DNA of 38,934 bases from a virus. Taxonomy: Duplodnaviria > Caudoviricetes. Each line of letters opens with the position of its first letter. Positions within the stretch are counted from its first letter, which is position 1. The notes under the pieces were generated by a model. That model was not told the DNA's origin and searched no databases. It saw only the letters and a program-made list of their open reading frames with translations. The stretch lies in the IMG/VR virus record IMGVR_UViG_3300007520_000038, positions 1-38,934 of that record. One strand, written 5' to 3'. This document shows positions 5,099-30,535 of the stretch, piece after piece. The position numbers were made by a program, and so were the translations under genes.

Positions 5099-5818
5099 AT
5101 GAATATTTATGGACAAACACCATACACATACTTACTTTACTGTATACCGTTAGATAAAATATATTATGGTGTCCGTGTAGGTAATCGGGTTTCGCCAAAA
5201 GAAGATCTTTGGCATGTATATTTTTCTAGTTCTACGCGGATCAAAAAGTTGAGAATCCAATTTGGTGATGCTGCCTTTGTTGCTAGTGTACGTAAAACAT
5301 TTAATTCACGCGAACGTGCGTTTATATGGGAAGAAAAGGTACTCGAGAAACTATTTTCCAAGCACCGAAGTAAATTAATTAATGTTAAAATAACAAGCTC
5401 TAGTTTTTGTAATAATCCTGGGTATACGCAGAGTGTTGATCATATACGTAAACGCGCTGACGGTCTTCGTAAACGTTGGGATGATCCGGATTTTAGAAAA
5501 GCACAGTTAGCACTAATTAGACAACCGGAGCGACAGGCTAAGGTAATTCAAGCCGTTAAAGACCGGTGGAAAGACCCTAAACGTCGCGAAGCTCTTACTG
5601 AACGAAACAACAAGCGTTGGGCAAATGCGCAAGAAAAAGAACGACATATAATGTTAAAATCGAAAACCTATAGAATTATTCTTCCGACTGGCGAAGAGCG
5701 TATAATACGCAACTTAACAAAGTTTGCAAAAGACAATTCTATAGGTTTAGGGTCATTACAAAAAGCTAAACGCTTAAATACGTGTGTTGCTGGATATTAT
5801 GTTAGTTTGCTTATATAA
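5099..5818 (+). CDS. free-standing Seg-like (GIY-YIG variant) homing endonuclease
   Basis: PYTYLL...KIYYGVR...YFSSS, WEEKVL; basic helical K/R-R-W repeats in the C-terminal half. Confidence 0.8.
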   Translation: MNIYGQTPYTYLLYCIPLDKIYYGVRVGNRVSPKEDLWHVYFSSSTRIKKLRIQFGDAAFVASVRKTFNSRERAFIWEEKVLEKLFSKHRSKLINVKITSSSFCNNPGYTQSVDHIRKRADGLRKRWDDPDFRKAQLALIRQPERQAKVIQAVKDRWKDPKRREALTERNNKRWANAQEKERHIMLKSKTYRIILPTGEERIIRNLTKFAKDNSIGLGSLQKAKRLNTCVAGYYVSLLI

Positions 5819-11050: not shown

Positions 11051-11079
11051 GTTATAGGCTCTTTACGTAGATGGTGCAA
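11051..11079 (-). promoter_or_regulatory. early promoter TTGCAC-N17-TATAAC
   Basis: 17-bp spacer; precedes the 389-aa gene. Confidence 0.7.
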
Positions 11080-13147
11080 CTTGATTCAGCAGTTCGGTCC
11101 ATTTATGTTGGACTGTTGCCCAGGAATGTTTGTTTCTTATATACTCACTCGCCTTTGCAAGCTTCGTTAAATCGTATCGTTCAGCTATATGTTTGATAAC
11201 CTTCGTAAGATGAGCTGTAAACAAATCTACGTGGATTTCTGGATTTGGTACGAATGGATATATATGTGTGAGGCCACCAGAAGTTTCCGGAAGGGCGCCA
11301 AGTGAGCTGTGAACGCAGAAGTTTCCAGTTGCCATTGCTTCAATAAGAGCTAGACAGTTATGACTTACAAATGTTTCTGTTACATAGGAATGATCTACCT
11401 CAACTTCAAAGTTGTATACCATTCCGCTATAATCAATAGGTTGTTGAATCTTATCTTTTTCTCGAAATTTTAACCCGATTAAGTTTTCATACTTTATACA
11501 TTTACTTTTTTGTTCAATATCATTCCAACTTACAGTGTATGCCTTGACTTTAGGTGTTTCACACACGGTTGCAAATTTACCTAAATTTGTTAGTATTTGC
11601 GTTGCTCCGTGAATGAGAGAAATAGATATTGATTGAATTGTTTTTCGGTTGTGTTTATTAGTGTGCCCATCAGCTGCAAAATATCCATTTAAAAATTCTT
11701 CTTGAATCGCGAACGAACAATCCCAAATAAATGACGGTACCCTTTTATCTCTGCTGACGCCAATCGTACCTCTAATGAAGTTCGCCCATATTTTATTATG
11801 CGCTGTAACCACTCCACCGTTTTCAGATGTTTGCTTATCTACTCCTCCAAAAAAATCAATAAAGCGTGCAACGTTATCTGTTTCAGATACGTGGTGTGCT
11901 AGCGTTAGCGTTCCAGCTTTTGAAGCATGTCCATCACCAGCCATTAACCCGAGAATATATGCAAACTCAGGTGTTATTTTCTGCCGATTTAGTACTTTTT
12001 TATAAGAACTATATGTATTACGAATACTAGTAATTTCATCTAATTCATTAACGAGATTATGTTCACCCTGCATGTAATCATATATATTAATATATTCAAG
12101 ATTCTGTTCGTGTTGTTTTACTCGTAATAACACTTCTGTTTGTTTATTAAAGTCTTCTGCATTTTTCCAAACTGTATTATATATTTTTTTAGTGTCTGAT
12201 TTACTATATTTAGCCGTTTTTTGCTTATGTATAATTCCCGTGTATAATGGATGTTCGTTTGTAAAGTATACTGTTTTATGTACTCCAATAGGTTTGAATC
12301 CATAGAGTTTTCCGTTATACTCCCTACTAAATGTTTTTGTTACTTTACGAAAAACCCCAGTGTGGGAAAGCACTTCATCTCCAATTTGAATATCTTCGAT
12401 GTTTTTAACACCAAGTTTAGTAAGTATATTAGTGCCTGCTAGCTGGCAACTCGTTTCAGGCCAAATCGACGGGAATGCAAAAACATGAGATTGTTTAAGG
12501 GCTTCAAGCACTTCTTCGTTTGATACAGTACCGTGGTATGTAATACCTGGATGATCTATACACTCTTGAAATAAGTGTTGATATTGTTGGTTTCGACTAC
12601 CCCAACCGTATATTTCAAACGAACTATACACATCAAGGGTAATATAGATGCCCTGCTCTTGTAGTTGAGTGTATAGAGTTTTAAACACCGGGAGTAGAAT
12701 AGCTAGGCCTCGGTGAGGTGTAGTATGGTATATTAACTTGATCGGGTATTCTTTTCGACCTAATCCGATTTTAAACTTATTATTTAAAATCGGCTTTAGA
12801 TCATAATCGATGTTAATTGAGTTGGGAATTATTACAGTGTTGTACGCTCGGGCATCGGGTAGATAACCCTTTTCGAGGAACTGTTGGTGTTGCCAATACG
12901 AAACAAACACCTGAACATCGAAATTGTATAAACTTGTCTTTAAATGCTCTGTTTCCGGGTCTCCGGGCAAATCATGAGCATAGTACACCGAATGCCGATT
13001 TTCGTCAAAATCACGAACTCTCGAGAAATAAAAATCTATGTTTTCAAGATGTTCTGGGTGCTTTTCTACGAGGAAATCATGAAGTCTCCCTTTTAGAAGT
13101 TCAGTACCACCCTTTGCGTTCGCAGATAGTTCGTCTGTTTTGATCAT
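11063..13147 (-). CDS. GT-B (GT4-like) glycosyltransferase containing an intein
   Basis: GGTE, HDL, YHTTPHRGL, FAFPSIWPETS|CLALIEAMATG...GALPET. Confidence 0.88.
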   Translation of the reverse strand: MIKTDELSANAKGGTELLKGRLHDFLVEKHPEHLENIDFYFSRVRDFDENRHSVYYAHDLPGDPETEHLKTSLYNFDVQVFVSYWQHQQFLEKGYLPDARAYNTVIIPNSINIDYDLKPILNNKFKIGLGRKEYPIKLIYHTTPHRGLAILLPVFKTLYTQLQEQGIYITLDVYSSFEIYGWGSRNQQYQHLFQECIDHPGITYHGTVSNEEVLEALKQSHVFAFPSIWPETSCQLAGTNILTKLGVKNIEDIQIGDEVLSHTGVFRKVTKTFSREYNGKLYGFKPIGVHKTVYFTNEHPLYTGIIHKQKTAKYSKSDTKKIYNTVWKNAEDFNKQTEVLLRVKQHEQNLEYINIYDYMQGEHNLVNELDEITSIRNTYSSYKKVLNRQKITPEFAYILGLMAGDGHASKAGTLTLAHHVSETDNVARFIDFFGGVDKQTSENGGVVTAHNKIWANFIRGTIGVSRDKRVPSFIWDCSFAIQEEFLNGYFAADGHTNKHNRKTIQSISISLIHGATQILTNLGKFATVCETPKVKAYTVSWNDIEQKSKCIKYENLIGLKFREKDKIQQPIDYSGMVYNFEVEVDHSYVTETFVSHNCLALIEAMATGNFCVHSSLGALPETSGGLTHIYPFVPNPEIHVDLFTAHLTKVIKHIAERYDLTKLAKASEYIRNKHSWATVQHKWTELLNQVAPST
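11357..12448 (-). mobile_element. intein (364 aa) with LAGLIDADG endonuclease
   Basis: CQLAGTNI start; FTNEHP block B; VYNFEV...VSHN/C end; ILGLMAGDG and FLNGYFAADG. Confidence 0.92.
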
Positions 13148-13431: not shown

Positions 13432-13678
13432 AGTTTTCACCCATTATGTTGTTTGCTGTTATAAATTGTTGCAGTTCAGTATATCCACCGATGTAATTAC
13501 CATCAACGACTACGATAGGGAGCGTCTTTGCAAACGGATATATTCGAACTACTTCTGCTCGAGAAATATCTTCTCCGATTAGTATTGAATCGTAGGCAAT
13601 TTCTCGAGACTCAAGTAGCGTTTTTGCCTTGACGCAATAGATGCATACCGGCTCAGCTCTCCAATATAGTTTGATCAT
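13406..13678 (-). CDS. glutaredoxin (NrdC-like)
   Basis: CIYC, TLPIVVVDG-x-YIGGYTEL. Confidence 0.9.
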   Translation of the reverse strand: MIKLYWRAEPVCIYCVKAKTLLESREIAYDSILIGEDISRAEVVRIYPFAKTLPIVVVDGNYIGGYTELQQFITANNIMGENYGNKRDNF

Positions 13679-14066
13679 TATAAACGATTTGTCCTTGTGT
13701 TTCAATTTTATGCGGGAACTGTGTTCGATCTATTACAGAATATTCTAACGATACTGGTTCGAACACATTAAAGAACGAAATTACAGTTTGAGGATCGTAT
13801 CCCTTACATGAATAGAGATCTGCTTTGACAAAAGGTTTTCCGTTATTATTCCAGAAATGTGCAGTGAAATGTGAAGTCGTTATCATTGCGAATACAGACA
13901 GACCCTCGTTGCAGGGATCGTCGCAATATTTGGCCACAGGAGGAATGAATACTTCCATGTCTATCGCTTTGATGATATCTCGAACCCAAGCCTCTGTCAG
14001 AGCTGTATCCGTAGGGGGATGAGTAATCTCCGCATCTATCATAAGATGCTTGTGTATTTTTGCCAT
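13653..14066 (-). CDS. speD: S-adenosylmethionine decarboxylase proenzyme
   Basis: HKHLMID, GLSVFAMITTSHFTAHFW (Ser pyruvoyl site), DLYSCK; start ATG 14066. Confidence 0.85.
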   Translation of the reverse strand: MAKIHKHLMIDAEITHPPTDTALTEAWVRDIIKAIDMEVFIPPVAKYCDDPCNEGLSVFAMITTSHFTAHFWNNNGKPFVKADLYSCKGYDPQTVISFFNVFEPVSLEYSVIDRTQFPHKIETQGQIVYNDQTILES

Positions 14067-14164
14067 ATTGGTTCCCGTTAAAAAGATCAAGAAAAGCGAC
14101 AATCACGAGTTACTATTGTCTCTGCTCATATAGAAAAATCTTATGGGAACGCAGCATATATTAT

Positions 14165-14614
14165 TTAGTTAAGCATCCTTTGCCATGTGGGAATTACCAT
14201 CCCTGCGACGCCAATTATATCACCTTCGCGTGATAGTGGCCACTTTACAACATTTAAAATATGTTCGCCACCGTGTATATCAACATATGTTTCTTGTAGT
14301 TCGACGTGTTCGTGTGATTCCATAACAGCTTTATCGTTTATACCATATTCTTTCGACGAATCGTTATGCCACATTTCAAAGTCTAATTTTGTATTGTATT
14401 CTTCAACAGTTACTTTATATTCAGTCTCGTATGCTGGATTTACGTATATCATTCGCGTATCGTAATCTTTAATCCAAGCAGGATACGGGCAACATGAAAT
14501 GAAAGATATTAGTTCTGATGCACGAGAGTCTAGGAAAAACGGAGCGACGGCCAGCCGTAATTCCATTTGTTCTAATGACTCAATGTTTAGAGTGATTTCT
14601 CCAGGCATCAACAT
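14165..14614 (-). CDS. stand-alone PAS-domain protein (PAS_4-like)
   Basis: PAWIKDYDTRMIYVNPAYE...DFEMW...NDKAVM...KWPL...IIGVAG. Confidence 0.8.
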   Translation of the reverse strand: MLMPGEITLNIESLEQMELRLAVAPFFLDSRASELISFISCCPYPAWIKDYDTRMIYVNPAYETEYKVTVEEYNTKLDFEMWHNDSSKEYGINDKAVMESHEHVELQETYVDIHGGEHILNVVKWPLSREGDIIGVAGMVIPTWQRMLN

Positions 14615-15662: not shown

Positions 15663-18638
15663 TTAGGGAGTATCTTCGTGAGGTACTACAGTCCAAATAT
15701 GTCGCTTTATTTGAGTATTATATACATTGCGATGGTACTCGCTATTTTCATTCCCCTGCCAATGATCCATTAAACCTTCAAAACGACTCGACGCCCATTC
15801 TTTTACAGTCTCATGCTTCTCGAGTTTCCACTTCTGCTCCTTATCAATAAGAAACTCATGCTCGTCTGCATATCGCGAATGTGGTTTTATATAAAGACCC
15901 TTATTATATCCGACTGGTAGCTTGAAGTGTATTATGTGCTTATCGTATGTATTCTTTACCGTGCTCAATGTTGAGGTAGCGGGGGTTAATGTTGTACGTT
16001 TAACAGGATTCATTGGAATAGGGCGCGGAGATTGCTTCTTTTTAAATTCAACTGTCTTTATATTAAACTTCTTTCCAAAATCAGCTGGTGTATTAGTGTT
16101 CAAAGATGCAGAAGTGAATGCAGGCATATGTATTACCCTATTACCATGTTTAAAATGTTCAGAAGGATCAAACCCCACCCCTGAATACACATGAGCTTCA
16201 TGATCAAGCGGCTTACTATGTTTGTGAATTATTTTAGAAAGAGTTCGTGCATAATCGAGCATTACAGGACGACGATCTGTTACGTCTACTGATATAAGAG
16301 TATGGTTAATATGCTCACTTTGAAAACGAGTATAATTTTCTATAGATTCTTTTTCAACTTGAGTAGGTACAAAGGCGTGGTTGCGCATCATTACTGCATC
16401 ATGTTCGGCGGCCTTGGCGTGGTGTGCTGCGCGTGATATCTTATTAGCGGTGATATTTCTTGCGCCGATGTTTGCATCAATAGTTTTGTTTGCGAACATC
16501 TTTGGATCATGCTCAAGTGCTTCAGTTATTGGTTTTTCAACATGAGGAGTAACAGTCCACACATGGCGTGGAACAAATGTTATGTTATGGCTGATGTCTG
16601 GATTACGCGTTCTGAACGTTTCATGCTTTGTAATTTTCCATGTTTGATTCCGATCCAACAGATATTCATGTTCAAAAGGTAACATGGAATGCGGAGCAAT
16701 ATACGCGCCACGAGTATATCCCGGTGGGAGTTCAAAGTGTATAATATGGTGAGCTTCATCTCGCTTACCCCAACCAAAACCTTTTGCAATAGTGTGCTGT
16801 ATACTAGTGGAAGTAAACGTAGGGGTATGAAGAGTATCTCCTACCTTTGCAAATCCCGATACCAAATGTGGATGTGTTGTACCAGCATACGTATGTATCG
16901 TATGATCTTGAGGAGTTGTATACTGTTTGATTCCCTCAGATACGTCTCGAACCAGATTAGTTAGCTGATGATCACCAAGCCCTGCAGCTGAGTTGTTAAT
17001 CCGTTTGGAATCCTTTGTGTATGCCTCAAGTTGCGGGTGTATCAACAGGGTCTCAGGTTCCCCTTTATATAAACTTATATGAGGTGTCTTTGCAATTACC
17101 CCATTATGTAGAAGTGATTTATGTTCTATAAACTCAGGTGATTTTGGCATTTTGTGTAGATGTTCTTTAGTCCACGCAACAGGATCTAGATGTGGATGTG
17201 CATCATTGAAGTATGCTTCTCCATCGTGGGTTACTTCTTCTTTGACTGTATCCGCTTCATGTGGCGTTACATGCCAAACGTGAACATTTTTCTCCCCATT
17301 ATTGAATACCGTCTTGTCTTGGAGTTTAAACTTTTGATCGTGATCAAGTACTAATTCGCGTTGTAGTTTAAATAACTTATTAGCCTTGCCGCCGAAGTAT
17401 GCGCCTCTCGCATATCCCTTTGGAAGATGGAAGTGTAAAACGTGGCAATGCCCCAGCGCTTGGGCGGCAATTTGCCAAGATACCTGCGGGTTTAAACTAG
17501 TAGAAAGATACGCCGGACTATGGAATACTCCATCCGCAGCATCAAAATGACTAGAAGGATTGAATCCAATACCAGAATATGTGTGTACATCGTGATCTAA
17601 AGCAAGGTCTTTTTTAAATATTGATTTTAATCTCTTGTGATGTTCTTGCGACTGTTCATCTATTATATAATTAGGGTTTTTTGCTTTAGTTAATAGCCGC
17701 GTGTTGATAATTGTATCCCCATGCGTGTACACATCTATAGCGTTGTTATCCTTCGCAGTGTATTTCGAATCATGCAACTTTATTAGTTGGTTATGTTGCT
17801 TTACAATACTAGGATGTTCAACAATAGACTTATACGCAGGTAGTGTATCAGCTAAGCTCGCAAGCCACGTTTCATCAGACTGATACCCCATTGGAGGATC
17901 GGCGTGGAAATGCTTCTTTAATTGTGCCTTTGAAAGCGGCTCATAAAGCTCTTTTACAGCTTCAGTTGGTGTATGAGGTACTACAGACCAAATCGTTCGG
18001 GTATGACGTACGTTCGTTTTAGGATGTGTGCCGTGTGTATGTGCAACATCAGTCAGTTTCCATTGTTGGTTTCGATCCATTAGCATTTCATGCTCGCCAG
18101 TATACCGTGAGATTTGAGCTATATATCGAGCGTGTTTATAGCCTTCTGGTAGCCGAAAATGTAATATATGTGTGTGTTTAATTCCTTTGTCGTGTATTAC
18201 CCGTTGAAAGTTGTCGTGTTCTGTTGCTATACTGGGGTCTATGGAAGTACTTATGAAGTGGTTTACCCGCATTATACCCTTCCCATGCTCAAATGCATGA
18301 GTAGGATTGAACTCGCCGAGACCTGCATATACGTGGTGTGTATGTTGCAGCGGTGCTAGTCCATGCTGTATCGCCTCTGATAATGCGTTCGCAGTAGATG
18401 TGTATAGTGGACTAGGAACGTCGGCACGCAGTTCCTTATTCAAATTAAAGCTTGTTTTAGTATATGCTTCAATTGCACGATTATGTATGGGGGTAGATTT
18501 GGGGTGTAGCTTTGAGAGGTGTAGATGCTCTTCCTCGTGTGAGGGATTGATATTGTAGCATGCTGGCTCACACGATTTGAAATCAACAAATGACGTATGC
18601 TGTGGATTATGTTCGAAGGCTTCTATAATATCTGTCAT
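15663..18638 (-). CDS. polyprotein of four ADP-ribosyltransferase (VIP2/Alt-like) domains
   Basis: Four copies of YT..[IL]N / H-x-Y[SA]G / S[TA]S / HF-x-LP-x-GY / [EQ]xE motifs with VKE and ITE linkers. Confidence 0.85.
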   Translation of the reverse strand: MTDIIEAFEHNPQHTSFVDFKSCEPACYNINPSHEEEHLHLSKLHPKSTPIHNRAIEAYTKTSFNLNKELRADVPSPLYTSTANALSEAIQHGLAPLQHTHHVYAGLGEFNPTHAFEHGKGIMRVNHFISTSIDPSIATEHDNFQRVIHDKGIKHTHILHFRLPEGYKHARYIAQISRYTGEHEMLMDRNQQWKLTDVAHTHGTHPKTNVRHTRTIWSVVPHTPTEAVKELYEPLSKAQLKKHFHADPPMGYQSDETWLASLADTLPAYKSIVEHPSIVKQHNQLIKLHDSKYTAKDNNAIDVYTHGDTIINTRLLTKAKNPNYIIDEQSQEHHKRLKSIFKKDLALDHDVHTYSGIGFNPSSHFDAADGVFHSPAYLSTSLNPQVSWQIAAQALGHCHVLHFHLPKGYARGAYFGGKANKLFKLQRELVLDHDQKFKLQDKTVFNNGEKNVHVWHVTPHEADTVKEEVTHDGEAYFNDAHPHLDPVAWTKEHLHKMPKSPEFIEHKSLLHNGVIAKTPHISLYKGEPETLLIHPQLEAYTKDSKRINNSAAGLGDHQLTNLVRDVSEGIKQYTTPQDHTIHTYAGTTHPHLVSGFAKVGDTLHTPTFTSTSIQHTIAKGFGWGKRDEAHHIIHFELPPGYTRGAYIAPHSMLPFEHEYLLDRNQTWKITKHETFRTRNPDISHNITFVPRHVWTVTPHVEKPITEALEHDPKMFANKTIDANIGARNITANKISRAAHHAKAAEHDAVMMRNHAFVPTQVEKESIENYTRFQSEHINHTLISVDVTDRRPVMLDYARTLSKIIHKHSKPLDHEAHVYSGVGFDPSEHFKHGNRVIHMPAFTSASLNTNTPADFGKKFNIKTVEFKKKQSPRPIPMNPVKRTTLTPATSTLSTVKNTYDKHIIHFKLPVGYNKGLYIKPHSRYADEHEFLIDKEQKWKLEKHETVKEWASSRFEGLMDHWQGNENSEYHRNVYNTQIKRHIWTVVPHEDTP

Positions 18639-18641
18639 GTC

Positions 18642-21600
18642 TTATTTATCATGCGGCTTTAGAGTAATAATTTGATATTTACTATGGGAAATTCGACCCG
18701 CAAGGTGGGCCGCCGTCCGGAAGATAGCACCATGTACGTTTTGCACGTGATGTACTTTCCATGTTTGCCCTTTATCTAATAGATATTCATACTCTGTATG
18801 ATGCATTGAAGCGTGTTCGCCGAGATATGTCCCACGATTGTATCCCTTCGGAAGATGGAAATGTAGAACGTTTCTCACACGATCGTGTATAGCTACTCCT
18901 GGAGCAAAGTGTCGGGCTGAAAATCCAGCGCCGACGTTTAAATCGATACTAGTGGATGTAAATGATGGCATATGAATTACTGTACCTATCTCAGTTGGGA
19001 CGTGTCTTGAAACGCCTGAATACACATGATGCTCACGATCTAGCGGTGCATTAGTTCTCGAGATTTCTTTTGAGATATTTGCTACAGTTTTATCAAGTCC
19101 GGATCTATCCTCAGAATCGGTACTCTCTGGTTCAAGTAGATGATAATTAATATGTGATGAGATGTGAGTGTATGTATCTCGCAATGTTGGACTTTTAAAG
19201 TGATTGTGTAAATCGGATAGATGGTCATGTTCCTCTTGACGACGACCTTGCTGATCTGCCTTTAATTGTCTTACTAGCGTATCATGCTTATCCTCCCAAC
19301 TTGACGAACGTCCGACTGCAATTCGTCGATTTAAATCTACACGAGGGTTATGCTCGTACGCCTCTTTAATAACTTCATCAGTATGGGGAACGAACGTATG
19401 TATATGCATCGTCCGGGGTCCGGCTCGCCCAGGACTCTCATGCGACGCACTCGATACATATTTCCATTTTTGATTGCGATGCAATAGAAATTCTTGTTCG
19501 TCGGTGTGTTGCCACCCGCGATGCCCTATATAACTACCTCTCTTATATCCCTCTGGAAGATCAAAGTGTATGATGTGGTTACTTCGCTTTGTAGATATAA
19601 AGTTAGAGGCCTGTTCAACATTTGCAGACGTCGACATATAAGCTGGGGTATGTACTGTTGCCCCAGGTTGCATGTCTCGTACAGGATTCCAATTTGTAGT
19701 ACCAGAATAGAAATGACCTCGACGCTTTAATGGCTTCGCGGTTTCCATCATTTTATCAAGTTTTGCTACTTGAGATGATACATGTTCCTTTTGAGACTCT
19801 GTTAGACGTCCGTGGCCCGCTATTTTAAACTTAGCACCGTGTGCTTCTAAAAGCACTCGATTAATCGAGCTACTATCTTCAGTATAGGAAAGAAGCGACC
19901 ACGCATGATCTTTTGACGATGTTTTAATTTGGTTGTATTTGGTGAGATGTTTAGCATGAGCACGCACTACATCTGAATATTTTTTTACTTTTTTTCTAAT
20001 CTTTACCGGATGGTCAACATGACCCCAGTTTGTAGGCTCTGTACCTTGTGCGAATAGACCTGCCATTATTTCTGGGTCATGCTCAAACGCCTCTTTAATA
20101 GTTTCATCGGTGTGAGGAACGAACGTATGTATACTAAACTTTCCCCAACGGCATTCTTTATTAAGTGTTTGTGAACCAGTATATTTCCACTTTTGGCCTC
20201 GGTTTAATAGATATTCATTTTCATCGCCAGCTTCACTGTGTTCTCCTATATAGATCCCGTGAGGGTATCCCGTTGGTAGATGGAAGTGTATGATATGTTT
20301 AGCAGAAAACTCCGTAGCGTGATTTATACTCGCACTTGTAGACATAAAGGCTGGTGTGTGAACGGCACTACCAATAGTTAATTTCCTAATCGGATTCCAA
20401 TGACCAGTACCTGAATAGAAATGTCCATCAACCTTTAACGCTCTTGCATGTTTTGTAAAGATGTTATCAAGCTGGTTCGTCGTTGTATAAACATTCTTAG
20501 CGTCCCAATGCGGATCATCGTAATACGCGTGGGGTGTTTTTGACATCGGCAAATGTTCAAACATATTATTATGTTTGCCTTTTGCAATATTTATTAAACG
20601 TCTGTTGAGTGGGTCTGACATTTCGGAAGTATACAACGCTATCGCTTCAGCATGTGCTTTAGTTATACGTCCCTTCATAGTATTATGCTTCTCAAGATGG
20701 TATATGTGACCGGTGACCGGACCGTCTATCGATTCGTAGTCTCTGTATAGGCCTGCATGGTCTCGTTTTGTTTTTTTAGATGCACCTTTAGGTGGGTCTG
20801 TGAAGACTGCTTTCATCGTTTTAGGGTCATGTGTAAACGCCATCTCTACAATTGGCTCAGTACTATGCGGCTTTACAGTAATAACACGAACAGGCTTATA
20901 GGGACCAGGGGTGACCTTTACAGCGTGCACCCGCCACGTTTGTCCATGATCAAGCAATACCTCATGCTCTTCCACATGAGACGAATGATGTCGCATATTC
21001 ATAGCTCGGTTGTACCCAGCTGGTAAGTGAAAATGTATAACAGTCCCGCCGGCCGCGAATTTATTCGCGACATCCAAACTATGACTAGTTGAAACAAATG
21101 CAGGTGTATGAATTAGTGTACCAACTATATCAGCTTTGCGCCCCGTTGGATTCCATGAACCTGTACCAGAGTAGATATGATGCTCATGCTTAAGAGGCGC
21201 GATTGACGCGAATGCTGTTTTTATTGCGTTATATCGCTCAGGTGCTTTCGAATAATCACTCTTGGCTAAGAAGGTTTTATCTTTCGCGATGAGCGCGTTG
21301 TTGATGGCGGTGGATGATAACGTATATGCGTTTAGCGCTGAAGCTATAAGAGGTGAAACACGCGGGTGTGGTGTGACAAACATAGAAGCTAGCTTAGCAT
21401 CTATCTTATGAGTGATACTCTTTCCAAGTAAAATATTTTTCACGTTCGCGTCTGTATGAGATCGTAGCGCTTCTTTTATTTGTTCAGTGTGAGGAACAAC
21501 AGAGATTACGTGATACCCATTGTTCTGGTTAGCGGTACGTATTTTAGTTACTTTCCATTTCTGATTGCGTTTTAACAGGAACTCCTTTTCCGCGAGGTGG

Positions 21601-22970
21601 AAACTATGCCCGGCAATATATCCACCGTGTGTAGATCCCTTAGGGAGATGGAAGTGTATGATAAAATTATGTGAAAATCCCCTCGATCTTTGTGCTGATA
21701 ATGAGGTAGAAGTATACGTGGGAGTATGCAGTACGTCCCCGGCTTTCAGGTGGCGTAAATCCCAGCTACCTATACCAGAATACGTATGTATATCTTCCGG
21801 AAGAGGTTTTGATAGCGCATGGAGGTCGCGGTCGAGAGCATGTACTGAGGCTATATGCTTTGGAGTAGAGAAAGCCTGTATAGGAAACGGCTTTGCCGGG
21901 CCGAAATGCGTCAATGCAAAGGCTGATTGATTTACGTTTTGGGCTCCCGATGAAAGAGTATAAGCTGGAATAGGATCCTTCAGACTCGAACTTGAAGTGT
22001 TACGTTCACCGTAATGATTAAGTAGTCTCGCATGTTGTTCAGTAGCGTCGTCACTTGCGATATACGTGAGGGCTTTGAGTCCATCTGCTAGTTTTAATCC
22101 TTTAATCCTGGAGAACGACCTCTGGGAACGGAAAGCATGTGACGTGTGCTCTGTTTGCTCTACCACATGGGGCGTATCGTGAGGAACAAGCGAAATAAAC
22201 TTAGCTACACTCTTTACTTTAGTACCTGAATGTGCATGTTCTATACCGACTGTGTGATGTGTTACATCATGTACTTTCCATTTCTGGCCTTTGTCGAGTA
22301 GAAATTCTTGTTCTCCGGGATACTGCGAGACTGCAGACACGTGAACGCCCTTTGAATATCCCTCTGGTAGATGGAAGTGTAATATTGTACGTTGTCTATC
22401 AAGTTTGCCGTTTTTAGTAGTCGCCCATGCGCGATTAAATGCTGTTGTTGGCTGTAAACTAGTAGAAGTATACGAGGGCATGTGTAACGCATCCCCCTTT
22501 TTAATGGTGTCGAGGGCCGTCCATTCGGAAGAAGCGCCAGAGTATACGTGTGTTTCGCGCGGCATTGGTTTGCTATGCTGGGTAAATTCATGCGTTAGTG
22601 CGCTAATCGTATCTTCGTGACGTAGTGTTCGGGCCTTGAACCGGTCGTCGGCTTCGTATGGTTCTCGTTGCCTACCATTCAGTAGAAAGGCATTTGTACC
22701 ATAGGAATCTACCGTCATTCGATGAAACCCGGGTGTTTGGGATCCTGGATGCAGACCAGCATGAGTTCTCATTTCTGAATCTTCAGCCCTCGAAGCATTC
22801 CACTGCTCGTCTTTTAGTTTGGCCTTGCTATCTGTATATTTACTTAAACGACCGTTAACAGCGTTATATATTCTATTTCCAACTGCAGACTGTATATTCG
22901 GATCGTATACGCGCGGCAGATGCTTCTTTGGATTGAACTCGTATCCTTCTTGCAGGGGTGTGTGAACCAT
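18642..22970 (-). CDS. polyprotein of six ADP-ribosyltransferase (VIP2/Alt-like) domains
   Basis: Six copies of H-x-YSG / STS / HF-x-LP-x-G / ExE-x-LL...Q-x-W with VVE, IKE and IVE linkers. Confidence 0.87.
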   Translation of the reverse strand: MVHTPLQEGYEFNPKKHLPRVYDPNIQSAVGNRIYNAVNGRLSKYTDSKAKLKDEQWNASRAEDSEMRTHAGLHPGSQTPGFHRMTVDSYGTNAFLLNGRQREPYEADDRFKARTLRHEDTISALTHEFTQHSKPMPRETHVYSGASSEWTALDTIKKGDALHMPSYTSTSLQPTTAFNRAWATTKNGKLDRQRTILHFHLPEGYSKGVHVSAVSQYPGEQEFLLDKGQKWKVHDVTHHTVGIEHAHSGTKVKSVAKFISLVPHDTPHVVEQTEHTSHAFRSQRSFSRIKGLKLADGLKALTYIASDDATEQHARLLNHYGERNTSSSSLKDPIPAYTLSSGAQNVNQSAFALTHFGPAKPFPIQAFSTPKHIASVHALDRDLHALSKPLPEDIHTYSGIGSWDLRHLKAGDVLHTPTYTSTSLSAQRSRGFSHNFIIHFHLPKGSTHGGYIAGHSFHLAEKEFLLKRNQKWKVTKIRTANQNNGYHVISVVPHTEQIKEALRSHTDANVKNILLGKSITHKIDAKLASMFVTPHPRVSPLIASALNAYTLSSTAINNALIAKDKTFLAKSDYSKAPERYNAIKTAFASIAPLKHEHHIYSGTGSWNPTGRKADIVGTLIHTPAFVSTSHSLDVANKFAAGGTVIHFHLPAGYNRAMNMRHHSSHVEEHEVLLDHGQTWRVHAVKVTPGPYKPVRVITVKPHSTEPIVEMAFTHDPKTMKAVFTDPPKGASKKTKRDHAGLYRDYESIDGPVTGHIYHLEKHNTMKGRITKAHAEAIALYTSEMSDPLNRRLINIAKGKHNNMFEHLPMSKTPHAYYDDPHWDAKNVYTTTNQLDNIFTKHARALKVDGHFYSGTGHWNPIRKLTIGSAVHTPAFMSTSASINHATEFSAKHIIHFHLPTGYPHGIYIGEHSEAGDENEYLLNRGQKWKYTGSQTLNKECRWGKFSIHTFVPHTDETIKEAFEHDPEIMAGLFAQGTEPTNWGHVDHPVKIRKKVKKYSDVVRAHAKHLTKYNQIKTSSKDHAWSLLSYTEDSSSINRVLLEAHGAKFKIAGHGRLTESQKEHVSSQVAKLDKMMETAKPLKRRGHFYSGTTNWNPVRDMQPGATVHTPAYMSTSANVEQASNFISTKRSNHIIHFDLPEGYKRGSYIGHRGWQHTDEQEFLLHRNQKWKYVSSASHESPGRAGPRTMHIHTFVPHTDEVIKEAYEHNPRVDLNRRIAVGRSSSWEDKHDTLVRQLKADQQGRRQEEHDHLSDLHNHFKSPTLRDTYTHISSHINYHLLEPESTDSEDRSGLDKTVANISKEISRTNAPLDREHHVYSGVSRHVPTEIGTVIHMPSFTSTSIDLNVGAGFSARHFAPGVAIHDRVRNVLHFHLPKGYNRGTYLGEHASMHHTEYEYLLDKGQTWKVHHVQNVHGAIFRTAAHLAGRISHSKYQIITLKPHDK

Positions 22971-23000: not shown

Positions 23001-23008
23001 TATTTATG
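23001..23008 (-). promoter_or_regulatory. T4-type late promoter CATAAATA
   Basis: One mismatch to TATAAATA; immediately after a terminator, 30 nt before the ART polyprotein start. Confidence 0.7.
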
Positions 23009-23010
23009 GC

Positions 23011-23034
23011 AAAAAGAAAGACTCCGAAGAGCCT
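23011..23034 (-). terminator. Rho-independent terminator
   Basis: AGGCTC-TTCG-GAGTCT followed by TTCTTTTT (C-UUCG-G loop). Confidence 0.85.
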
Positions 23035-24333: not shown

Positions 24334-25434
24334 TTAAAGTTTAAGGCCGGCTAAAAAGTCAGCTGTGATATCTTGTTTTACTGCACCAACCTCATAGGAA
24401 GTTATCTGCACTTCTTGTGGAGCTGGTTGAACATCATTACCAGATATCCAACGTTGCGTCCACGGTAGGGGGTTTACGTTCGTTACATCGTAGAGCTTAG
24501 GGTATCCTGCCCCGTTGAGTACTTTATTTGTTCTCCACTTGACAAAGCTACTCAAAAGCCCTTCATTTAACCCGAGCATTGATCCACTCGCAAAGAGTGT
24601 AGTTGCCCAGGATATTTCTTGTTCAGCTGCTGCCTCTATAATAGACATGGAATTATCTTCATCCATCTTACGAATCAGCGCAAAATCTTTATCGTCTTTC
24701 GGTAGTGCCTTTAATAGGTGTTGAGTAACACCAAGATGTAGATTCTCATCACGACAAATTAGCTTGATAAGTGTTGCGTTTCCCTCCATACGATTTGTTT
24801 CAGCGAACGCCCACGAACACGCGAATGAAACATAGAACCGAATACCTTCAAGTGCAGTAACTGCAACCAACGCTCTCCAGAAGGATCGCTTGTGTTCAAA
24901 TTCATCATAGTCGGGAAATAGTCCGTTTTGGAACATCATACGCTTCGCGTTCCAAAGGATCAAGTCGTCATAGTGCTTGACAATATCCATAGCACAATCA
25001 ACCACAGGCTGAATTTCAGTAATAGCATCAAAAATTGGAGTAGCGTCTGAATAGACGCCTTCAATGATATACTGGTATGTTTTATTATGTATTTGTTCGT
25101 AGAACGGCCAAGTGCAAATCCAATTTTCCATCTCTGGAGTCGAACAGAGCGGTCCGAATAGTTGTGAAGGCGCTCGCTCTTGAATAGAATCGAGAATGGT
25201 TTGTCTACTTAGGTTATATGTAAAGATTAGCTGCTCTGGTTTTGTTAGTCTTTTCTTGAAGTCTGCCCGATCAGGGTATATTTCAATCTCGGACGGTCGC
25301 CAAAACTTTCCAATCTGTTCTTCGTTAACACCGGAAATAAAAGGATACTTGTCGATATCATATCGAACAATATCAACTGTGTCCCCAAAGAATAGCTTCC
25401 GTACTTTATCACCTTTAACTTCGAATACTGACAT
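24334..25434 (-). CDS. nrdB: class Ia ribonucleotide reductase beta subunit
   Basis: FWRPSEI, QTILDSIQ, EQIHNKTY, LEGIRFYVSFACSWAFAE, RDENLH, APQEVQITSY; TAATG start at 25434. Confidence 0.95.
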   Translation of the reverse strand: MSVFEVKGDKVRKLFFGDTVDIVRYDIDKYPFISGVNEEQIGKFWRPSEIEIYPDRADFKKRLTKPEQLIFTYNLSRQTILDSIQERAPSQLFGPLCSTPEMENWICTWPFYEQIHNKTYQYIIEGVYSDATPIFDAITEIQPVVDCAMDIVKHYDDLILWNAKRMMFQNGLFPDYDEFEHKRSFWRALVAVTALEGIRFYVSFACSWAFAETNRMEGNATLIKLICRDENLHLGVTQHLLKALPKDDKDFALIRKMDEDNSMSIIEAAAEQEISWATTLFASGSMLGLNEGLLSSFVKWRTNKVLNGAGYPKLYDVTNVNPLPWTQRWISGNDVQPAPQEVQITSYEVGAVKQDITADFLAGLKL

Positions 25435-26507
25435 TATACTGAACAACAATCCTTTTCTGCGTCTTCTAAAATGAAAATAGCTTCGTTATCTTTTTCACCT
25501 GAGTTATCATTAGTGTTGAGATAATACAGCGACTTACCTCCCCACCGATAGTGATTAACAACATCTTTAACCATAACCGACATCGGTAGTTTACCATCAG
25601 GGTAAAATGCTGGGTTGTATGACGTATTAACACTCATCCCAGAATCCATCCACTTTTGAATAACAGCGGCAATTTTTAGATATCCTTCAGGTGATTTTTG
25701 ATCCCAAAGTAGATCGTACGCATTCTTGAGTTTACGCGACTCGGGAACAACCTGAGTAAGAATGCCATCTTTACTCTTCTTGGAAGAGATAATACCGCGA
25801 GCAGGTTCAAAACCATTTGTGCTGTTGCTTGTCTGAGATGAAGACTCAGTTGGCATCTGACACATATTCGGGTTATTTCGAACTCCAGATATTTTAGCAC
25901 GTTCTCTGTTTTTATTCCAGTCTAAACGCTCAACAAAAGGAGTTAACTCATCTACGGCTTTCTTGCGAACGTCTTGCGGCATCATACCTTGCTTATATAG
26001 AGTATCCTCTACGCGACGGCAGGGCCCCCACTTCTCTGCACGTTCGATTGAGCCTTCAATCGCACCGTACGCGTGAGCTTCCATCCACTGATCAACAGTA
26101 TCAAGACATTCTGGAGTTGCGTCTTGATACTTGAATCCTTGCTTTGCCATCCAGTATGCGAAGTTTGTAATACCGACACCAATTGAGCGGAAATCGATAG
26201 TACCTTCGCGTGCTGCTTCAATAATATAATCTTGATATGAAATAAGCTCATCAAGGGCGTAACCAGCAAGCTTGACGTATTTGATAAGATCTTCTTTTGT
26301 CTTAATAATACCATAGTTAACTGCAGATAATGTACAGAGAGAAATACGCGCATCTGTATCATCGAGAGACTTCATTGGTACAGTATTCTGCATAACTTCC
26401 GTGCAGTTATGCACTAAGATCTCATTAGCAAAAAAGTTTTCATTATCTTCAACAGTAATATCATACACTGCTGCTTTTCGTGTTATTTTTTTAATTTTTA
26501 ATGTCAA
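25434..26507 (-). CDS. nrdA: ribonucleotide reductase alpha subunit, C-terminal part, preceded by the C-half of a split intein
   Basis: HN|CTEV, LCTLSAVN, MPTESSSQTSNSTNGFEP, KSLYYLNT, C-terminal cysteines; TTG start. Confidence 0.93.
   Translation of the reverse strand: MTLKIKKITRKAAVYDITVEDNENFFANEILVHNCTEVMQNTVPMKSLDDTDARISLCTLSAVNYGIIKTKEDLIKYVKLAGYALDELISYQDYIIEAAREGTIDFRSIGVGITNFAYWMAKQGFKYQDATPECLDTVDQWMEAHAYGAIEGSIERAEKWGPCRRVEDTLYKQGMMPQDVRKKAVDELTPFVERLDWNKNRERAKISGVRNNPNMCQMPTESSSQTSNSTNGFEPARGIISSKKSKDGILTQVVPESRKLKNAYDLLWDQKSPEGYLKIAAVIQKWMDSGMSVNTSYNPAFYPDGKLPMSVMVKDVVNHYRWGGKSLYYLNTNDNSGEKDNEAIFILEDAEKDCCSV
26406..26507 (-). mobile_element. split intein C-half (34 aa)
   Basis: KIKKI...VYDITVEDNENFFANEILVHN followed by Cys+1. 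Confidence 0.92.
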
Positions 26508-27381
26508 TAGATTTTACCTTTATTTTTGTATTCTTTTTATGTTTGAAAATTGTTATGTCGTACCCTGTAAAGCTATCACAAAACGCATATGCTATTTTCG
26601 GAAGATTACCAGTATTAATATACTCACTAAATCTAAAGGCGCTCCCGAAGTGTGGATAGTTATGCTCACTAACTATATCCCGCTGGAATTGTCTTATTGA
26701 TATAAACTCACCATTATCAATATATTGCTTTAACAAATCTAAAATTTGTTGATCAGTTATACTACTATAGTTGTTGTTTAATATACCAGTACTGCATATT
26801 GATCTGTTTTTACGTTCAGCTTCAGAATAAACTCTACCTGTTAAATGGTGTATCCATTGCCCGGATAAAACATTAGGATGTGTATTTGACACCGATCCTA
26901 CTATGCAACGAGTATCGATATCCCGTACAACTATTTTGCCAGTTCTTGCTTCAGAAATCTTCTTTCTGCCTTCAGCAGTTTGCCATCCGTGTTTTTTTCT
27001 AAATTCTGCAGAATTTGTTTTTATCCAAGCATATCCAACCTTTATACTTTTAGTTATTCTTAGATGTGATATATCACCCCGGCACTGCTTGTTCCCCTTT
27101 ACCCCGTTTAGCATAAAGCGTACTGCTAATACATCTTGTCTACAATTATATGCTTTATATCTAAGTTTATGTGCAAAAAGATGTTCTTCTGGTAATAGAA
27201 CTACGAGATTGTGCATATCATTAGTTCCACCTATTGATCGAGGTACAATGTGATGTATCTCGGTATATATATTTTGCTTTGATATTCTGAAATCAGTTTT
27301 ATTACGCGAAACTAATCTTGAACGTACAGTAGTCGTCTGACAGTAGTGTATAAACCTTCGGTATAGTTGATCGTAATTCAT
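26491..27381 (-). CDS. free-standing HNH homing endonuclease (MobE-like) between the nrdA halves
   Basis: MNY-x-x-LY, YTEIHHIVPRSIGG-x-x-x-x-x-NLV-x-L-x-x-EEH-x-x-AH. Confidence 0.9.
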   Translation of the reverse strand: MNYDQLYRRFIHYCQTTTVRSRLVSRNKTDFRISKQNIYTEIHHIVPRSIGGTNDMHNLVVLLPEEHLFAHKLRYKAYNCRQDVLAVRFMLNGVKGNKQCRGDISHLRITKSIKVGYAWIKTNSAEFRKKHGWQTAEGRKKISEARTGKIVVRDIDTRCIVGSVSNTHPNVLSGQWIHHLTGRVYSEAERKNRSICSTGILNNNYSSITDQQILDLLKQYIDNGEFISIRQFQRDIVSEHNYPHFGSAFRFSEYINTGNLPKIAYAFCDSFTGYDITIFKHKKNTKIKVKSIDIKN

Positions 27382-27383
27382 TT

Positions 27384-27432
27384 AAACTCCAGAACTTCTA
27401 AACATATAACTATATTTATAGTTCTGGAGTTT
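27384..27432 (-). promoter_or_regulatory. 13-bp inverted repeat occluding the HNH SD, with late promoter TATAAATA inside
   Basis: AAACTCCAGAACT (27384-27396) / AGTTCTGGAGTTT (27420-27432); promoter at 27413-27420. Confidence 0.85.
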
Positions 27433-27436
27433 TATG

Positions 27437-29074
27437 CTATGTAATTACTAATTGATCCTGTGTATCTAAATACTGCGCTTCAACATACCCGCGATTTTTT
27501 GTAAAGATTTTATGTTCAGGTGTGCAATATATTTTTTTGCCCGTCTCTTCATCTTCTATTTCAAAGAGTTCCGCCTCCGGGTCTGTTAATGACGCAGCTA
27601 AAATCGATTTATACTCTGAACCCTGCTCTTTAATATTATAAGACAATACCTCAACCGAGTTTCCAGCTTGAATGAGCGTAACAACATCTTCCAGCGACAT
27701 ATCAAGCAGCTCTTCACGATATCTAATCTGTAAAATAGTATCACCCACGAGACATAGATTTGTCATTCGAACAGGAGCTCGTTCAGACACATACATACTT
27801 TGGTTGTTTGCATTGTCCACATTCATAATATAAATGCGACCTGTATCTTTACGCTCTTGCAATAGGAGGTTGAAGAACTCCGATGCCTTTACTCGATCTT
27901 TATTGACCTTCGTGGACCGTTCGTATTTCTCATATAGCTCTTTAAACTTCTCGTCGCTCTCGTAAAATGCATCGATAAGCCCTGGGGTCTCTCTATGTGA
28001 AGGAGACATAAGAGTAATAGATTCGCCATTTAACAGCCGCTCATAAAACATACGATTAACTTGAACGACGTAGTCAACACCACGAGCACTTGAATCGTCA
28101 GCGCCCTTGTTATTCTTTAGCGTGAGCATATCCATAATCTCACGAGACCATCCGAGGATATTAACTGTCGCGGCGCCTGACCGCATCCCGCCTTGAGACG
28201 CAGATTTAGTTGCACCTTGTAGGAATCGGATATAGGGTGTCTTACCCGTATGATATGCGTATCCGTCATTTACGTCGTCGCCAAGATCGCGGATGGATGT
28301 AGTGGATACCCCAATACCAGCCCGCTTGGAAATATATTTTACAATAGCGGTTGCACCAGCAGTAATACCGTCGAGCCCGTCAGCAATGTCAATCAATACG
28401 CAAGAGCTAAATTGCTTCGTACGAGTGCGAACGCCAGCAATGAGTGGAGATGCTAACGAAATATAGAATTTGGATGTCGCGTCGTAGTATTCCTTAATCC
28501 AATTCATACGATCAGGGAAACGCTCTGTGTTGTGGAAGATGGTTGCGGCAATCAGAATAAACGCAACCTGAGGAGTTTCAAGGAACTCACCCGTATGTCT
28601 ATTCTTTACAAGATATTTACCACGGAATTGCTCCATACCTGCATAAACAATAGTATCGTCACGTTGGTGATCAACAATGCTGTCGAGGTATTCAAATTCT
28701 TCTTCAGTATACCAGTCGAGTAGTTCAGAGGTATAAAGCTTACGATCAACGTTTTCTTTGACAATATCATACAGCTTCTTCGGTTGATACTGTCCGTATA
28801 CTTCCTTACGCAACTGATAGTTAACAAGGCGACCTGCTACGTATTGATAGTTTGGAGCCTCTCCAGTAATAAGTTCAGCGGCTGCCTTTACAAGTGTTTC
28901 TTGAATATCGGAAGTTTTCATACCGTTAAAGAATTGCAGCTGAGACTTTAATTCAAGTTCGGAAACAGATACTCCGGCAAGTCCTTCACAGGCAGCTTCA
29001 ACTACTTTGTGAATCTTCGAAAGGTTTAAATCCTCCTTTTCGCCGTTTCTTTTAACTACTTGTATATCAATCAT
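27437..29074 (-). CDS. nrdA: ribonucleotide reductase alpha subunit, N-terminal part, ending in the N-half of a split intein
   Basis: ATP cone VVKRNG, ETPQ, QFSSCVLI, SQGGMRSGAAT, TGRIYIMNVD, RMTNL|CLVGDT. Confidence 0.95.
   Translation of the reverse strand: MIDIQVVKRNGEKEDLNLSKIHKVVEAACEGLAGVSVSELELKSQLQFFNGMKTSDIQETLVKAAAELITGEAPNYQYVAGRLVNYQLRKEVYGQYQPKKLYDIVKENVDRKLYTSELLDWYTEEEFEYLDSIVDHQRDDTIVYAGMEQFRGKYLVKNRHTGEFLETPQVAFILIAATIFHNTERFPDRMNWIKEYYDATSKFYISLASPLIAGVRTRTKQFSSCVLIDIADGLDGITAGATAIVKYISKRAGIGVSTTSIRDLGDDVNDGYAYHTGKTPYIRFLQGATKSASQGGMRSGAATVNILGWSREIMDMLTLKNNKGADDSSARGVDYVVQVNRMFYERLLNGESITLMSPSHRETPGLIDAFYESDEKFKELYEKYERSTKVNKDRVKASEFFNLLLQERKDTGRIYIMNVDNANNQSMYVSERAPVRMTNLCLVGDTILQIRYREELLDMSLEDVVTLIQAGNSVEVLSYNIKEQGSEYKSILAASLTDPEAELFEIEDEETGKKIYCTPEHKIFTKNRGYVEAQYLDTQDQLVIT
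27440..27754 (-). mobile_element. split intein N-half (105 aa)
   Basis: CLVGDT block A; CTPEHKIFTKNRGYVEA block B; stop codon soon after. Confidence 0.92.
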
Positions 29075-29552: not shown

Positions 29553-29580
29553 GTATATTACGCACAATGCAAGTATATTA
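29536..29580. repeat. perfect 20-bp tandem duplication (CGCACAATGCAAGTATATTA x2, with a preceding TATTA)
   Basis: Directly visible at 29541-29560 and 29561-29580. Confidence 0.95.
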
Positions 29581-30519
29581 TGTTTTCCATGGAGTATCTA
29601 TACTCCTAATATTAGCGTGAGGGTCTGCCTCAGTGCTAGACCAGGAGTGTGTCGGTAGGTCGTGTGTAAGATTTCTAAACCGAGTTATTCCATCGTGAAA
29701 TTTTTCCGGCCCTAGTGCGCTATGTTCCAGCGCCGCTCCGATAGCAGCATGTAGGTCTGTATCTCCAGGATAATGCTGCTTGGCGGATGACATCGCGCTG
29801 CTAAGGCTGCTTCTGATACTATATGCTTTTCTAGATGCGGCTGTATTTTGTAGATATCTTTCCTTCACATCAACAGCTGCATTCCACCGATCAGCTTGCC
29901 CAGTTTCGCCTGGAAATTCTTTTGCCATACGATGCGCGTTCGTGACATGATCGAGTGCGTGTTGTTGAGTTTCAAAAGTTCTGTCGCCAGTATCATGACC
30001 GGGAAACTTATGGTCAGCGTCTGTCGTATCATTTGTATAGCGAGTTAATTCGCCTGTTTGGTGATGAGTTTGCACATACATCCCAGAATCGTCAGGTGAT
30101 GCGTAGTGCTTTCCAAGTTCAGATGCAGTTAGTGGTTTCCACGATCCAGAGTTGAAGTGTCCGTCAAGCGTCGGCTTTACTACATAGTGATTACCGCCAC
30201 GACGAAAGGAGTTTGCTTTTCCGGTACGTTTACCCATTACGCCTATATGTTCACCATCAATCGAAATGTTGTGATATCCAGAAAGATCGTAATCTTTAAA
30301 TTTCTCATCTTTGATACGAGTAAGCTTTGCCCCGAGAGCTGTAGCTATCGCCATCTCTGTAATAAGAGTTTCCGTTATTTGAGATAACTCAGATTCTGGT
30401 GCAGTTGTTGTAGGTTCTTCTGGAGAAGAACTATCTTCTGGAGTACCCATTTCAGTAGCATCAATTTGTTCAGCTGTCATTAGATTCTGCATATCTTGTA
30501 CGAAATTTCTAAAGCTCAT
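29578..30519 (-). CDS. late protein, probable internal head protein with acidic propeptide
   Basis: MSFRNF start after GGAG; acidic S/P/T/E leader ending QITE-TLITE-MA; tandem late promoters upstream. Confidence 0.75.
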   Translation of the reverse strand: MSFRNFVQDMQNLMTAEQIDATEMGTPEDSSSPEEPTTTAPESELSQITETLITEMAIATALGAKLTRIKDEKFKDYDLSGYHNISIDGEHIGVMGKRTGKANSFRRGGNHYVVKPTLDGHFNSGSWKPLTASELGKHYASPDDSGMYVQTHHQTGELTRYTNDTTDADHKFPGHDTGDRTFETQQHALDHVTNAHRMAKEFPGETGQADRWNAAVDVKERYLQNTAASRKAYSIRSSLSSAMSSAKQHYPGDTDLHAAIGAALEHSALGPEKFHDGITRFRNLTHDLPTHSWSSTEADPHANIRSIDTPWKT

Positions 30520-30535
30520 TTTATTCTCCACGGAC

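Follow-up and report, generated by a model that had tools for sequence, protein, structure and literature searches.

Two adjacent genes of a virus fragment encode ten ADP-ribosyltransferase-fold units separated by putative head-protease sites

The stretch of DNA analyzed here, called the window below, is a 38.9-kb virus fragment (Caudoviricetes; IMG/VR record IMGVR_UViG_3300007520_000038, 38,934 nucleotides (nt) in all). Two adjacent genes on its minus strand, designated A and B, encode chains of six and four diverged units with an ADP-ribosyltransferase (ART) fold, and each unit is preceded by a hydrophobic-x-Glu motif of the type cut by gp21 of phage T4. An earlier note on this DNA had proposed that the two proteins are loaded into the capsid and cut into ten injectable ARTs. 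Judged from sequence and structure models, packing in the head and cutting into single domains are very probable, and the sequences suggest that the freed units probably ADP-ribosylate host proteins. For the whole reading, in which A and B are packed, cut and injected as separate enzymes that probably ADP-ribosylate different host proteins, we estimate a probability of about 0.55. The term 'ART' needs a qualifier, since all units lack the Arg that positions nicotinamide adenine dinucleotide (NAD).

Ten ART-fold units in two genes

The genes, leaders and units are listed in Table 1; gene B starts 3 nt past the stop of gene A. All ten units passed the Pfam cut-off for PF03496 (E 1.5e-11 to 2.5e-8), and the only families that Pfam finds in the two proteins are of ART type. 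Searched against solved structures, a profile built from the ten units hit VIP2 first (E 2e-14). For unit A5, the model (mean predicted local distance difference test score (pLDDT) 69.9, below 50 for the first 46 residues) resembles Certhrax, VIP2, CDTa and C3, with E values of 5e-11 to 1e-9 for Certhrax, VIP2 and C3 and 11 to 20% identity in the structural alignments with bacterial ART toxins. The six-plus-four arrangement and the ART fold put forward in the earlier note are borne out. The ESM Atlas returned generic PF03496 clusters only. A 'head maturation protease' label from PHROG (phrog_595) was rejected, because only the ART part of that profile matches, and MuF-ART fusions match it likewise.

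Table 1. Features of genes A and B and of the region upstream of gene A. Coordinates are those of the window; for leaders and units that end in a motif, the lower coordinate is the low base of the Glu codon.
Feature	Coordinates	Strand	Length	Description
Late-promoter-like motif	23001..23008	-		CATAAATA, T4-like, 37 nt ahead of the gene A start
Terminator-like hairpin	23019..23034	-		UUCG hairpin and T-run immediately upstream of this promoter-like motif
Gene A	18642..22970	-	1442 aa	8-aa leader and six ART-fold units
Leader of A	22947..22970	-	8 aa	ends in L-Q-E (Glu at residue 8); predicted propeptide, by comparison with T4 Alt ITE-6
Unit A1	22158..22946	-	263 aa	E-Q-E; ends in V-V-E (predicted cut)
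Unit A2	21471..22157	-	229 aa	E-K-E; ends in I-K-E (predicted cut)
Unit A3	20844..21470	-	209 aa	E-H-E; ends in I-V-E (predicted cut)
Unit A4	20091..20843	-	251 aa	E-N-E; ends in I-K-E (predicted cut)
Unit A5	19362..20090	-	243 aa	E-Q-E; ends in I-K-E (predicted cut); model matches VIP2/C3/Certhrax folds
Unit A6	18645..19361	-	239 aa	E-Y-E; C-terminal, no trailing motif
Gene B	15663..18638	-	991 aa	6-aa leader and four ART-fold units
Leader of B	18621..18638	-	6 aa	ends in I-I-E (Glu at residue 6); length and form as in the T4 Alt propeptide (ITE-6)
Unit B1	17949..18620	-	224 aa	E-H-E; ends in V-K-E (predicted cut)
Unit B2	17238..17948	-	237 aa	Q-R-E, sole Q-x-E unit; ends in V-K-E (predicted cut)
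Unit B3	16521..17237	-	239 aa	E-H-E; ends in I-T-E (predicted cut)
Unit B4	15666..16520	-	285 aa	E-H-E; two long beta insertions; C-terminal, no trailing motif

The units are indeed diverged, with pairwise identities of 22 to 41%, and their lengths (209 to 285 aa) span a wider range than the 230 to 270 aa first estimated. The P-H ending that had been described is present in 10 of 10, and the [EQ]-x-E, likewise described, takes the form E-x-E in nine units and Q-x-E in one. Most units are basic and rich in His (pI above 8 in eight of the ten; His 7 to 12%). N-terminal halves had been described as variable; the variable part is in fact only about 40 to 70 aa, not half of the unit. These N-terminal parts are 19% identical, compared to 31% for the cores. 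Insertions behind the S-T-S helix and within the final hairpin, close to the active site, are just as variable, so the choice of target need not reside in the N-terminal part.

The window stretch was present in three sequencing runs. Across their contigs, no stop-creating change was found in A or B except a 1-nt deletion at 17968, in one run, and no joints that skip a cassette were seen. The deletion lies in the B1/B2 linker and recurs in three database proteins (P0034, P0035 and P0037). It would free B1 as a 227-aa protein and leave B2 to B4 without a leader, and may be a natural variant or an assembly error.

A junction motif placed like a gp21 cut site

A homolog search yielded a family of 27 proteins including A and B, with 3 to 10 units each and 164 units in all; four of them (P0002, P0007, P0010 and P0019) come from contigs of 180 to 240 kb. 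At 130 of their 137 internal junctions, [ILVM]-x-E is found no more than 12 residues after the terminal Pro, mostly at 6 to 9, compared to 11.3% of random 12-aa windows; it follows none of the 27 C-terminal units. The middle position of the motif is free, and Ala is the next residue after the Glu in 82 of the 130. Among proteins found later, which had not been used in defining the motif, 27 of 29 junctions had it within a 42-aa window, while the proportion in arrays of Arg-type ARTs was 33 of 64. The ten sites of the window, one before each unit, are those that the earlier note had listed.

In T4, gp21 is reported to cleave after L/I-X-E (PMC9026906), and Alt to be cut at ITE-6 and LTE-619 (PMC5694885). 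Residue E619 stands 43 residues past the last Glu of the E-M-E of Alt; the eight internal sites of the window lie 37 to 49 residues past the same catalytic Glu, and the family median is 46. This matching spacing indicates positional homology between the junction and a gp21 cut that has been reported. The AlphaFold model of gene B (mean pLDDT 79) consists of four separate domains, and its predicted template modelling score of 0.37 implies no fixed domain arrangement. Its pLDDT drops below 50 at residues 1-6, 225-231, 462-471 and 701-707, which are the four motif sites. At the DNA level, the A5/A6 junction (19345..19404) and the A4/A5 junction (20074-20133) are 87% identical over 60 nt, despite a protein identity of only 41% between units A4 and A5.

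Leaders, promoter and head genes

Among the 27 family proteins, 26 have [ILVMF]-x-E within their first 15 residues, and ten match leader patterns of the type found in the T4 internal proteins (IP). A HMMER profile run against 1.84 billion proteins returned 5203 matches with E no higher than 0.001, of which the best 150 were classified. These 150 comprised 87 single-domain proteins without the strand-1 Arg, 31 of them with a strict capsid-targeting-type leader; such leaders were found in 0 of 22 Arg-type arrays. In one single-domain relative, the leader differs from that of T4 IPII/IPIII at 2 of 10 positions. Both gp21 and gp23 were found in one of five records only, the complete 202-kb genome G002, which carries two of the single-domain Arg-less genes.

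Upstream of gene A stands CATAAATA, a type of motif that we take to be a late promoter. Its late function is inferred. In T4, TATAAATA occupies the corresponding position before alt, behind a UUCG hairpin. Of the 15 copies of ATAAATA on the minus strand of the window, nine fall no more than 60 nt upstream of a gene (P = 2e-8), although the motif is not enriched overall (19 found, 15.7 expected). Terminator-like hits in the window were not above shuffles (6 found, 6.8 expected), and a sigma-70 scan was at chance level. The final codons of gene A together with its stop also spell ATAAATA (18643-18649), 11 nt before gene B; a D-K-stop ending is common to many family proteins.

Indirectly, the loading and cutting proposed in the earlier note are well supported by the junction-specific site, the spacing shared with Alt, the low-confidence linkers, the leaders of single-domain relatives and the late-promoter-like motif. 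The course of events would be as follows. Late transcription would start at CATAAATA, with B co-transcribed with A. The leader is highly likely to dock the whole chain in the prohead core, one tag bringing in four to six cargoes, and a gp21-type protease very likely cuts the exposed linkers after [ILV]-x-E, sparing motifs in folded cores. Ten separate domains of 23 to 33 kDa would then be injected with the DNA. The freed units probably transfer ADP-ribose, mostly to arginine, by means of an NAD site reshaped when the strand-1 Arg was lost; B2, with its Q-x-E, would probably use another acceptor.

Several side observations concern related contigs. The large set of single-domain Arg-less ART-fold genes (P0041-P0171; L005 9577-11368; L004 606-1100), many of which have T4-type capsid-targeting leaders, is possibly an undescribed clade in its own right. 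Read by eye, the L004 gene adjoins terminase-like and portal-like genes. Contig G001 is syntenic with the window around a four-unit polyprotein and carries further tagged genes; by eye, no head genes were obvious in the flanks of G001 or G006. Five or six adjacent paralogs in G001 (L015 6848-9956) have a common N-terminal leader of about 20 aa followed by hydrophobic-x-E. No Pfam family was found for the five that were scanned, and they are candidate internal head proteins with a different tag. Genes for an NAD synthase and a NADAR protein are also present in G001 (L016 1280-2077 and L015 1832-2377).

Points against this reading, and alternatives

A number of observations weigh against the reading of packed, cut and injected enzymes. 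The family is absent from cultured phages; protein A and unit B4 had no match in 50,697 GenBank phage records. The motif is loose, with [ILV]-x-E occurring 16 times in A and 12 times in B, and inside units at about 0.8 per 100 aa. Six copies between the two cut sites of T4 Alt remain uncut, so exposure must decide where cutting occurs. The conserved stretch extends past the Glu (A-x-x-H-x-P), beyond the known needs of gp21, and in the gene B model the pLDDT is below 50 also away from the linkers (480-530 and 722-734). Both window leaders lack the aromatic residues of the IPII/IPIII-type tag, as does the 6-aa leader of T4 Alt. No gp21 was found on the polyprotein-bearing contigs: the window has no head module, the gp21 of this phage is not on its contig, and G001 (42% complete) gave no match. 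Scans with clade markers brought up fragments only. Lastly, the position of the Arg in the strand-1 R-S-E signature is occupied in the 164 units by Ser (155), Ala (6), His (2) or Thr (1), and never by Arg. The active T4 Alt retains this Arg, and among the family units there is no conserved Arg or Lys column near the site that could substitute for it.

The Y-R of strand 1 in VIP2 and Alt aligns to Y-S in the window units, with Ser in eight and Ala in two. Of the ART hallmarks claimed earlier, the fold, the S-T-S and the catalytic Glu are kept, while this loss had been overlooked. The Arg positions NAD (PMC8120803) and matters for catalysis in iota toxin (PMC10747272). The catalytic side is close to invariant: the first Ser of the strand-2 S-T-S is kept in 163 of 164 units, the catalytic Glu in all 164, and Glu or Gln at -2 from it in all 164 (157 E-x-E and 7 Q-x-E). 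To judge from the sequences, this argues against decay, but activity cannot be assumed. Several His columns are also highly conserved. The units lack the helix-3 Arg as well; we dropped this as a special second loss, since the active T4 Alt lacks it too.

The distribution of the loss was placed in a phylogenetic context with FastTree, using 363 of 405 domains (42 were dropped for gaps). A single split (support 0.997) sets 293 of 297 non-Arg domains apart from 65 of 66 Arg/Lys domains, and the strand-1 state requires 5 changes on the tree compared to at least 55 in 200 shuffles. Alt falls among the Arg-type domains, with weak internal support. These results suggest that the Arg-less domains form a clade of their own, which is provisional because the tree is unrooted and the domains were sampled by similarity to the window units. 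We found no description of such a clade in the literature, where unseen supplementary tables could list such proteins.

Packing and cutting could also serve a different chemistry, in which the ligand or substrate of the Arg-less pocket is another NAD-like molecule (candidates are ADP-ribose-derived defence signals and NAD-capped or other nucleotides), or in which a host partner or target completes the site. The clade-wide, ordered loss speaks for this, as do the conservation of the replacing Ser itself (155 of 164) and of the His columns, and phage proteins handling ADP-ribose have been proposed to be packaged against soluble signals (PMC9503650). However, 157 of 164 units retain the E-x-E, which is associated with arginine acceptors (PMC3102197), and only one NAD contact is special, the helix-3 Arg being absent from active Alt too. 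Moreover, the 80 groups into which family units fall (see below) suit many macromolecular targets better than one small molecule. We consider this alternative unlikely, though it is the strongest of those envisaged, and we prefer the view that host proteins are ADP-ribosylated.

It is improbable that the chains are packaged and stay intact, or partly cut, like beads on a string, the motif being the leftover of a duplicated leader or an element of recombination or folding. Hydrophobic-x-Glu would not have persisted at 130 of 137 junctions, with free variation at position -2, if it were a leftover; the motif is lost after all 27 C-terminal units, and the site, found in linkers modelled with low confidence, is homologous to a gp21 cut that has been reported. 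Such beads would nevertheless account for the conservation past the Glu, and for the 60 nt at 87% identity and the cassette swaps at the junction, which resemble a recombination handle; several [ILV]-x-E of Alt stay uncut, and phage N4 packages its virion RNA polymerase without processing it (PMC5512222). Release of single units by cutting is the reading we retain.

Units without catalytic activity, serving as decoys or as a DNA-binding filler of the core and retained for their fold and charge like the basic internal head proteins, would agree with the loss of the NAD-positioning Arg and with the basic, His-rich composition of most units. We hold this to be very improbable, as filler needs neither a Glu present in 164 of 164 units nor a near-invariant Ser across units only 25 to 40% identical. 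Least probable of all is a late action inside the infected cell, uncut or after cutting by free protease: the location of A and B amid replication genes and the lack of IP-type aromatics in their leaders would fit, but T4 alt and ip genes also lie outside the head cluster, the Alt leader has no aromatic residue either, and gp21 acts in the prohead.

Comparison with known systems

With T4 Alt, the window proteins share the ART fold with E-x-E, a 6-aa leader ending in hydrophobic-x-Glu (I-I-E in B, I-T-E in Alt), a second site with the same spacing just behind the ART domain, the lack of a helix-3 Arg, and a TATAAATA-type motif after a UUCG hairpin upstream. Alt is however a 682-aa protein with one ART domain that keeps the strand-1 Arg, whereas the window has four to six Arg-less domains per chain, and a C-terminal cut would free the next domain where that of Alt frees a propeptide. 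Homology does not extend over full-length Alt: the phrog_802 match is limited to the ART core, and the family profile matches only Alt 405-510. On sequence grounds, A and B are not Alt orthologs, and they fail the Arg test of the R-S-E class while keeping its fold. By analogy, and as far as sequence and models inform us, the working principle would be that of T4 Alt with gp21, multiplied. T4 IPI-III similarly have a short N-terminal leader ending in a gp21-type site, and many single-domain relatives carry a near-copy of the IPII/IPIII leader. T4 has one leader for each small protein, in contrast to one leader for several cargoes in the window, where the leaders keep only the cut motif.

The polyvalent proteins of phages and conjugative elements also combine many effector domains per chain, are proposed to be packaged, processed and delivered, and include tandem ARTs (PMC5512222). 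One of them, from a Pseudomonas aeruginosa prophage (WP_023121221.1), has 12 ART copies of the H-Y-D clade (PMC5512222). The differences are that the ARTs there are of H-Y-D type, that processing is ascribed mainly to built-in metallopeptidases, and that the domains are functionally diverse, as opposed to the ART-type Pfam families alone in A and B; PMC5512222 states that Alt/VIP2 ARTs are absent from polyvalent proteins. MuF-ART fusions and packaged phage ARTs have been described too (PMC9503650). Several VIP2-like ARTs in one phage protein were encountered in MuF-fused or multi-ART head proteins (among them P0051, P0060, P0063 and P0118), three of these four matching head-morphogenesis families. 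Unlike A and B, such proteins keep the Arg, mix ARTs with other domains, have no T4-type leaders (0 of 22) and show the motif inconsistently (33 of 64). The bacterial toxins of PF03496 (VIP2, C3, Certhrax and iota type) have the fold, the S-T-S and the E/Q-x-E in common with the window units, which differ from them in lacking the Arg, in their low identity (11 to 20%), in having no visible secretion or cell-binding parts, and in their phage setting.

The earlier note knew of no described phage system of this design. No description of gp21-punctuated ART arrays was found in the literature, where unseen supplementary tables could list such proteins, and the available portions of PMC7824862 and PMC7411985 make no mention of them. 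Novelty is nonetheless somewhat lower than claimed, because the prophage protein with 12 ARTs and the proposed processing of multi-effector proteins are already in print (PMC5512222).

Relatives and exchange of units

A single-domain relative gave weak matches only, to MuF-type ARTs, among the GenBank phage records. In bacterial and archaeal genomes no relative was found; 34 pattern matches were obtained and none was confirmed. A word-index search for stand-alone units came back empty, and since the HMMER scan found many of them, this blank reflects a limit of sensitivity.

At 42% identity, the family units fall into 80 groups, which recur in differing numbers and orders. Two close relatives, P0005 and P0008, have four units in common at 95 to 99% identity and differ by one inserted unit and by the replacement of the last one, with both breaks at the Glu site. 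Whole units have thus been gained and exchanged at this site, which may be read as a cassette system in an arms race. Tandem duplication of one gene that carried a leader and a single domain is the likely origin of the arrays, the cut site being kept at each joint. A related array is spread over three open reading frames (ORFs) in L001 (5917-10376), of which the second and third are apparently one gene broken by a frameshift. Four multi-ART proteins of Arg type (P0065, P0069, P0086 and P0135) have short repeated linker motifs of their own (H-D-Q-K-S-H-G-N-W; D-x-G-F-D-P-x-Q-P-R), which suggests a parallel cassette design in other phages.

The window and its gene content

The window carries T4-like genes for UvsX, helicase, primase, thymidylate synthase, nrdA/B, RNase H and PhoH. 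Genes A and B sit amid the replication and nucleotide genes (nrdA/B, RNase H, PhoH), away from head genes. The window has no close cultured relative: its helicase shares about 41% identity with those of cyanophages, and for a marker gene the identity to Caulobacter, Sinorhizobium and Pseudomonas phages is 23 to 31%. The three runs holding the stretch are labelled freshwater metagenome, and no RNA dataset was among the listed holders.

The other genes mentioned here are all on the minus strand. The nrdA gene is in two ORFs (25434-29074), with intein-splicing hits at the break of each and, between them, an HNH endonuclease gene with its own ATAAATA; the arrangement resembles a fractured gene whose intein is split. 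Intein-like inserts with a LAGLIDADG endonuclease are found in a glycosyltransferase (11063-13147) and in PhoH (5811-7634). Downstream of the array lie a stand-alone PAS-domain gene (14165-14614) and an S-adenosylmethionine decarboxylase gene (13653-14102). A His-rich ORF of about 313 aa (29578-30531) has a capsid-targeting-like start and two ATAAATA upstream. It matched no Pfam or PHROG family and is a candidate for head cargo.

Implications

A broader reading is possible, and we offer it only tentatively: the Ser-Ser-Glu domains may be a widespread, head-packaged ART-fold clade with its own chemistry or cofactor use, made in some T4-like phages into swappable polyprotein magazines. One tag might then load up to ten effectors for the head protease to free, and cassettes might be traded between phages, in the manner of polymorphic toxins, against changing host targets or defences met at injection.

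If the reading of packed, cut and injected enzymes is true, it would extend the trimming of T4 propeptides to a true polyprotein strategy in tailed phages, with one targeting tag and one protease delivering many enzymes small enough for injection. The targets of the at least 80 unit types would then indicate host proteins and defences that phages must disable first. A large ART-fold clade without the Arg regarded as defining its class would represent either a new solution to NAD binding or a new chemistry. Finally, the design suggests how a single gene might supply a phage head with several proteins.

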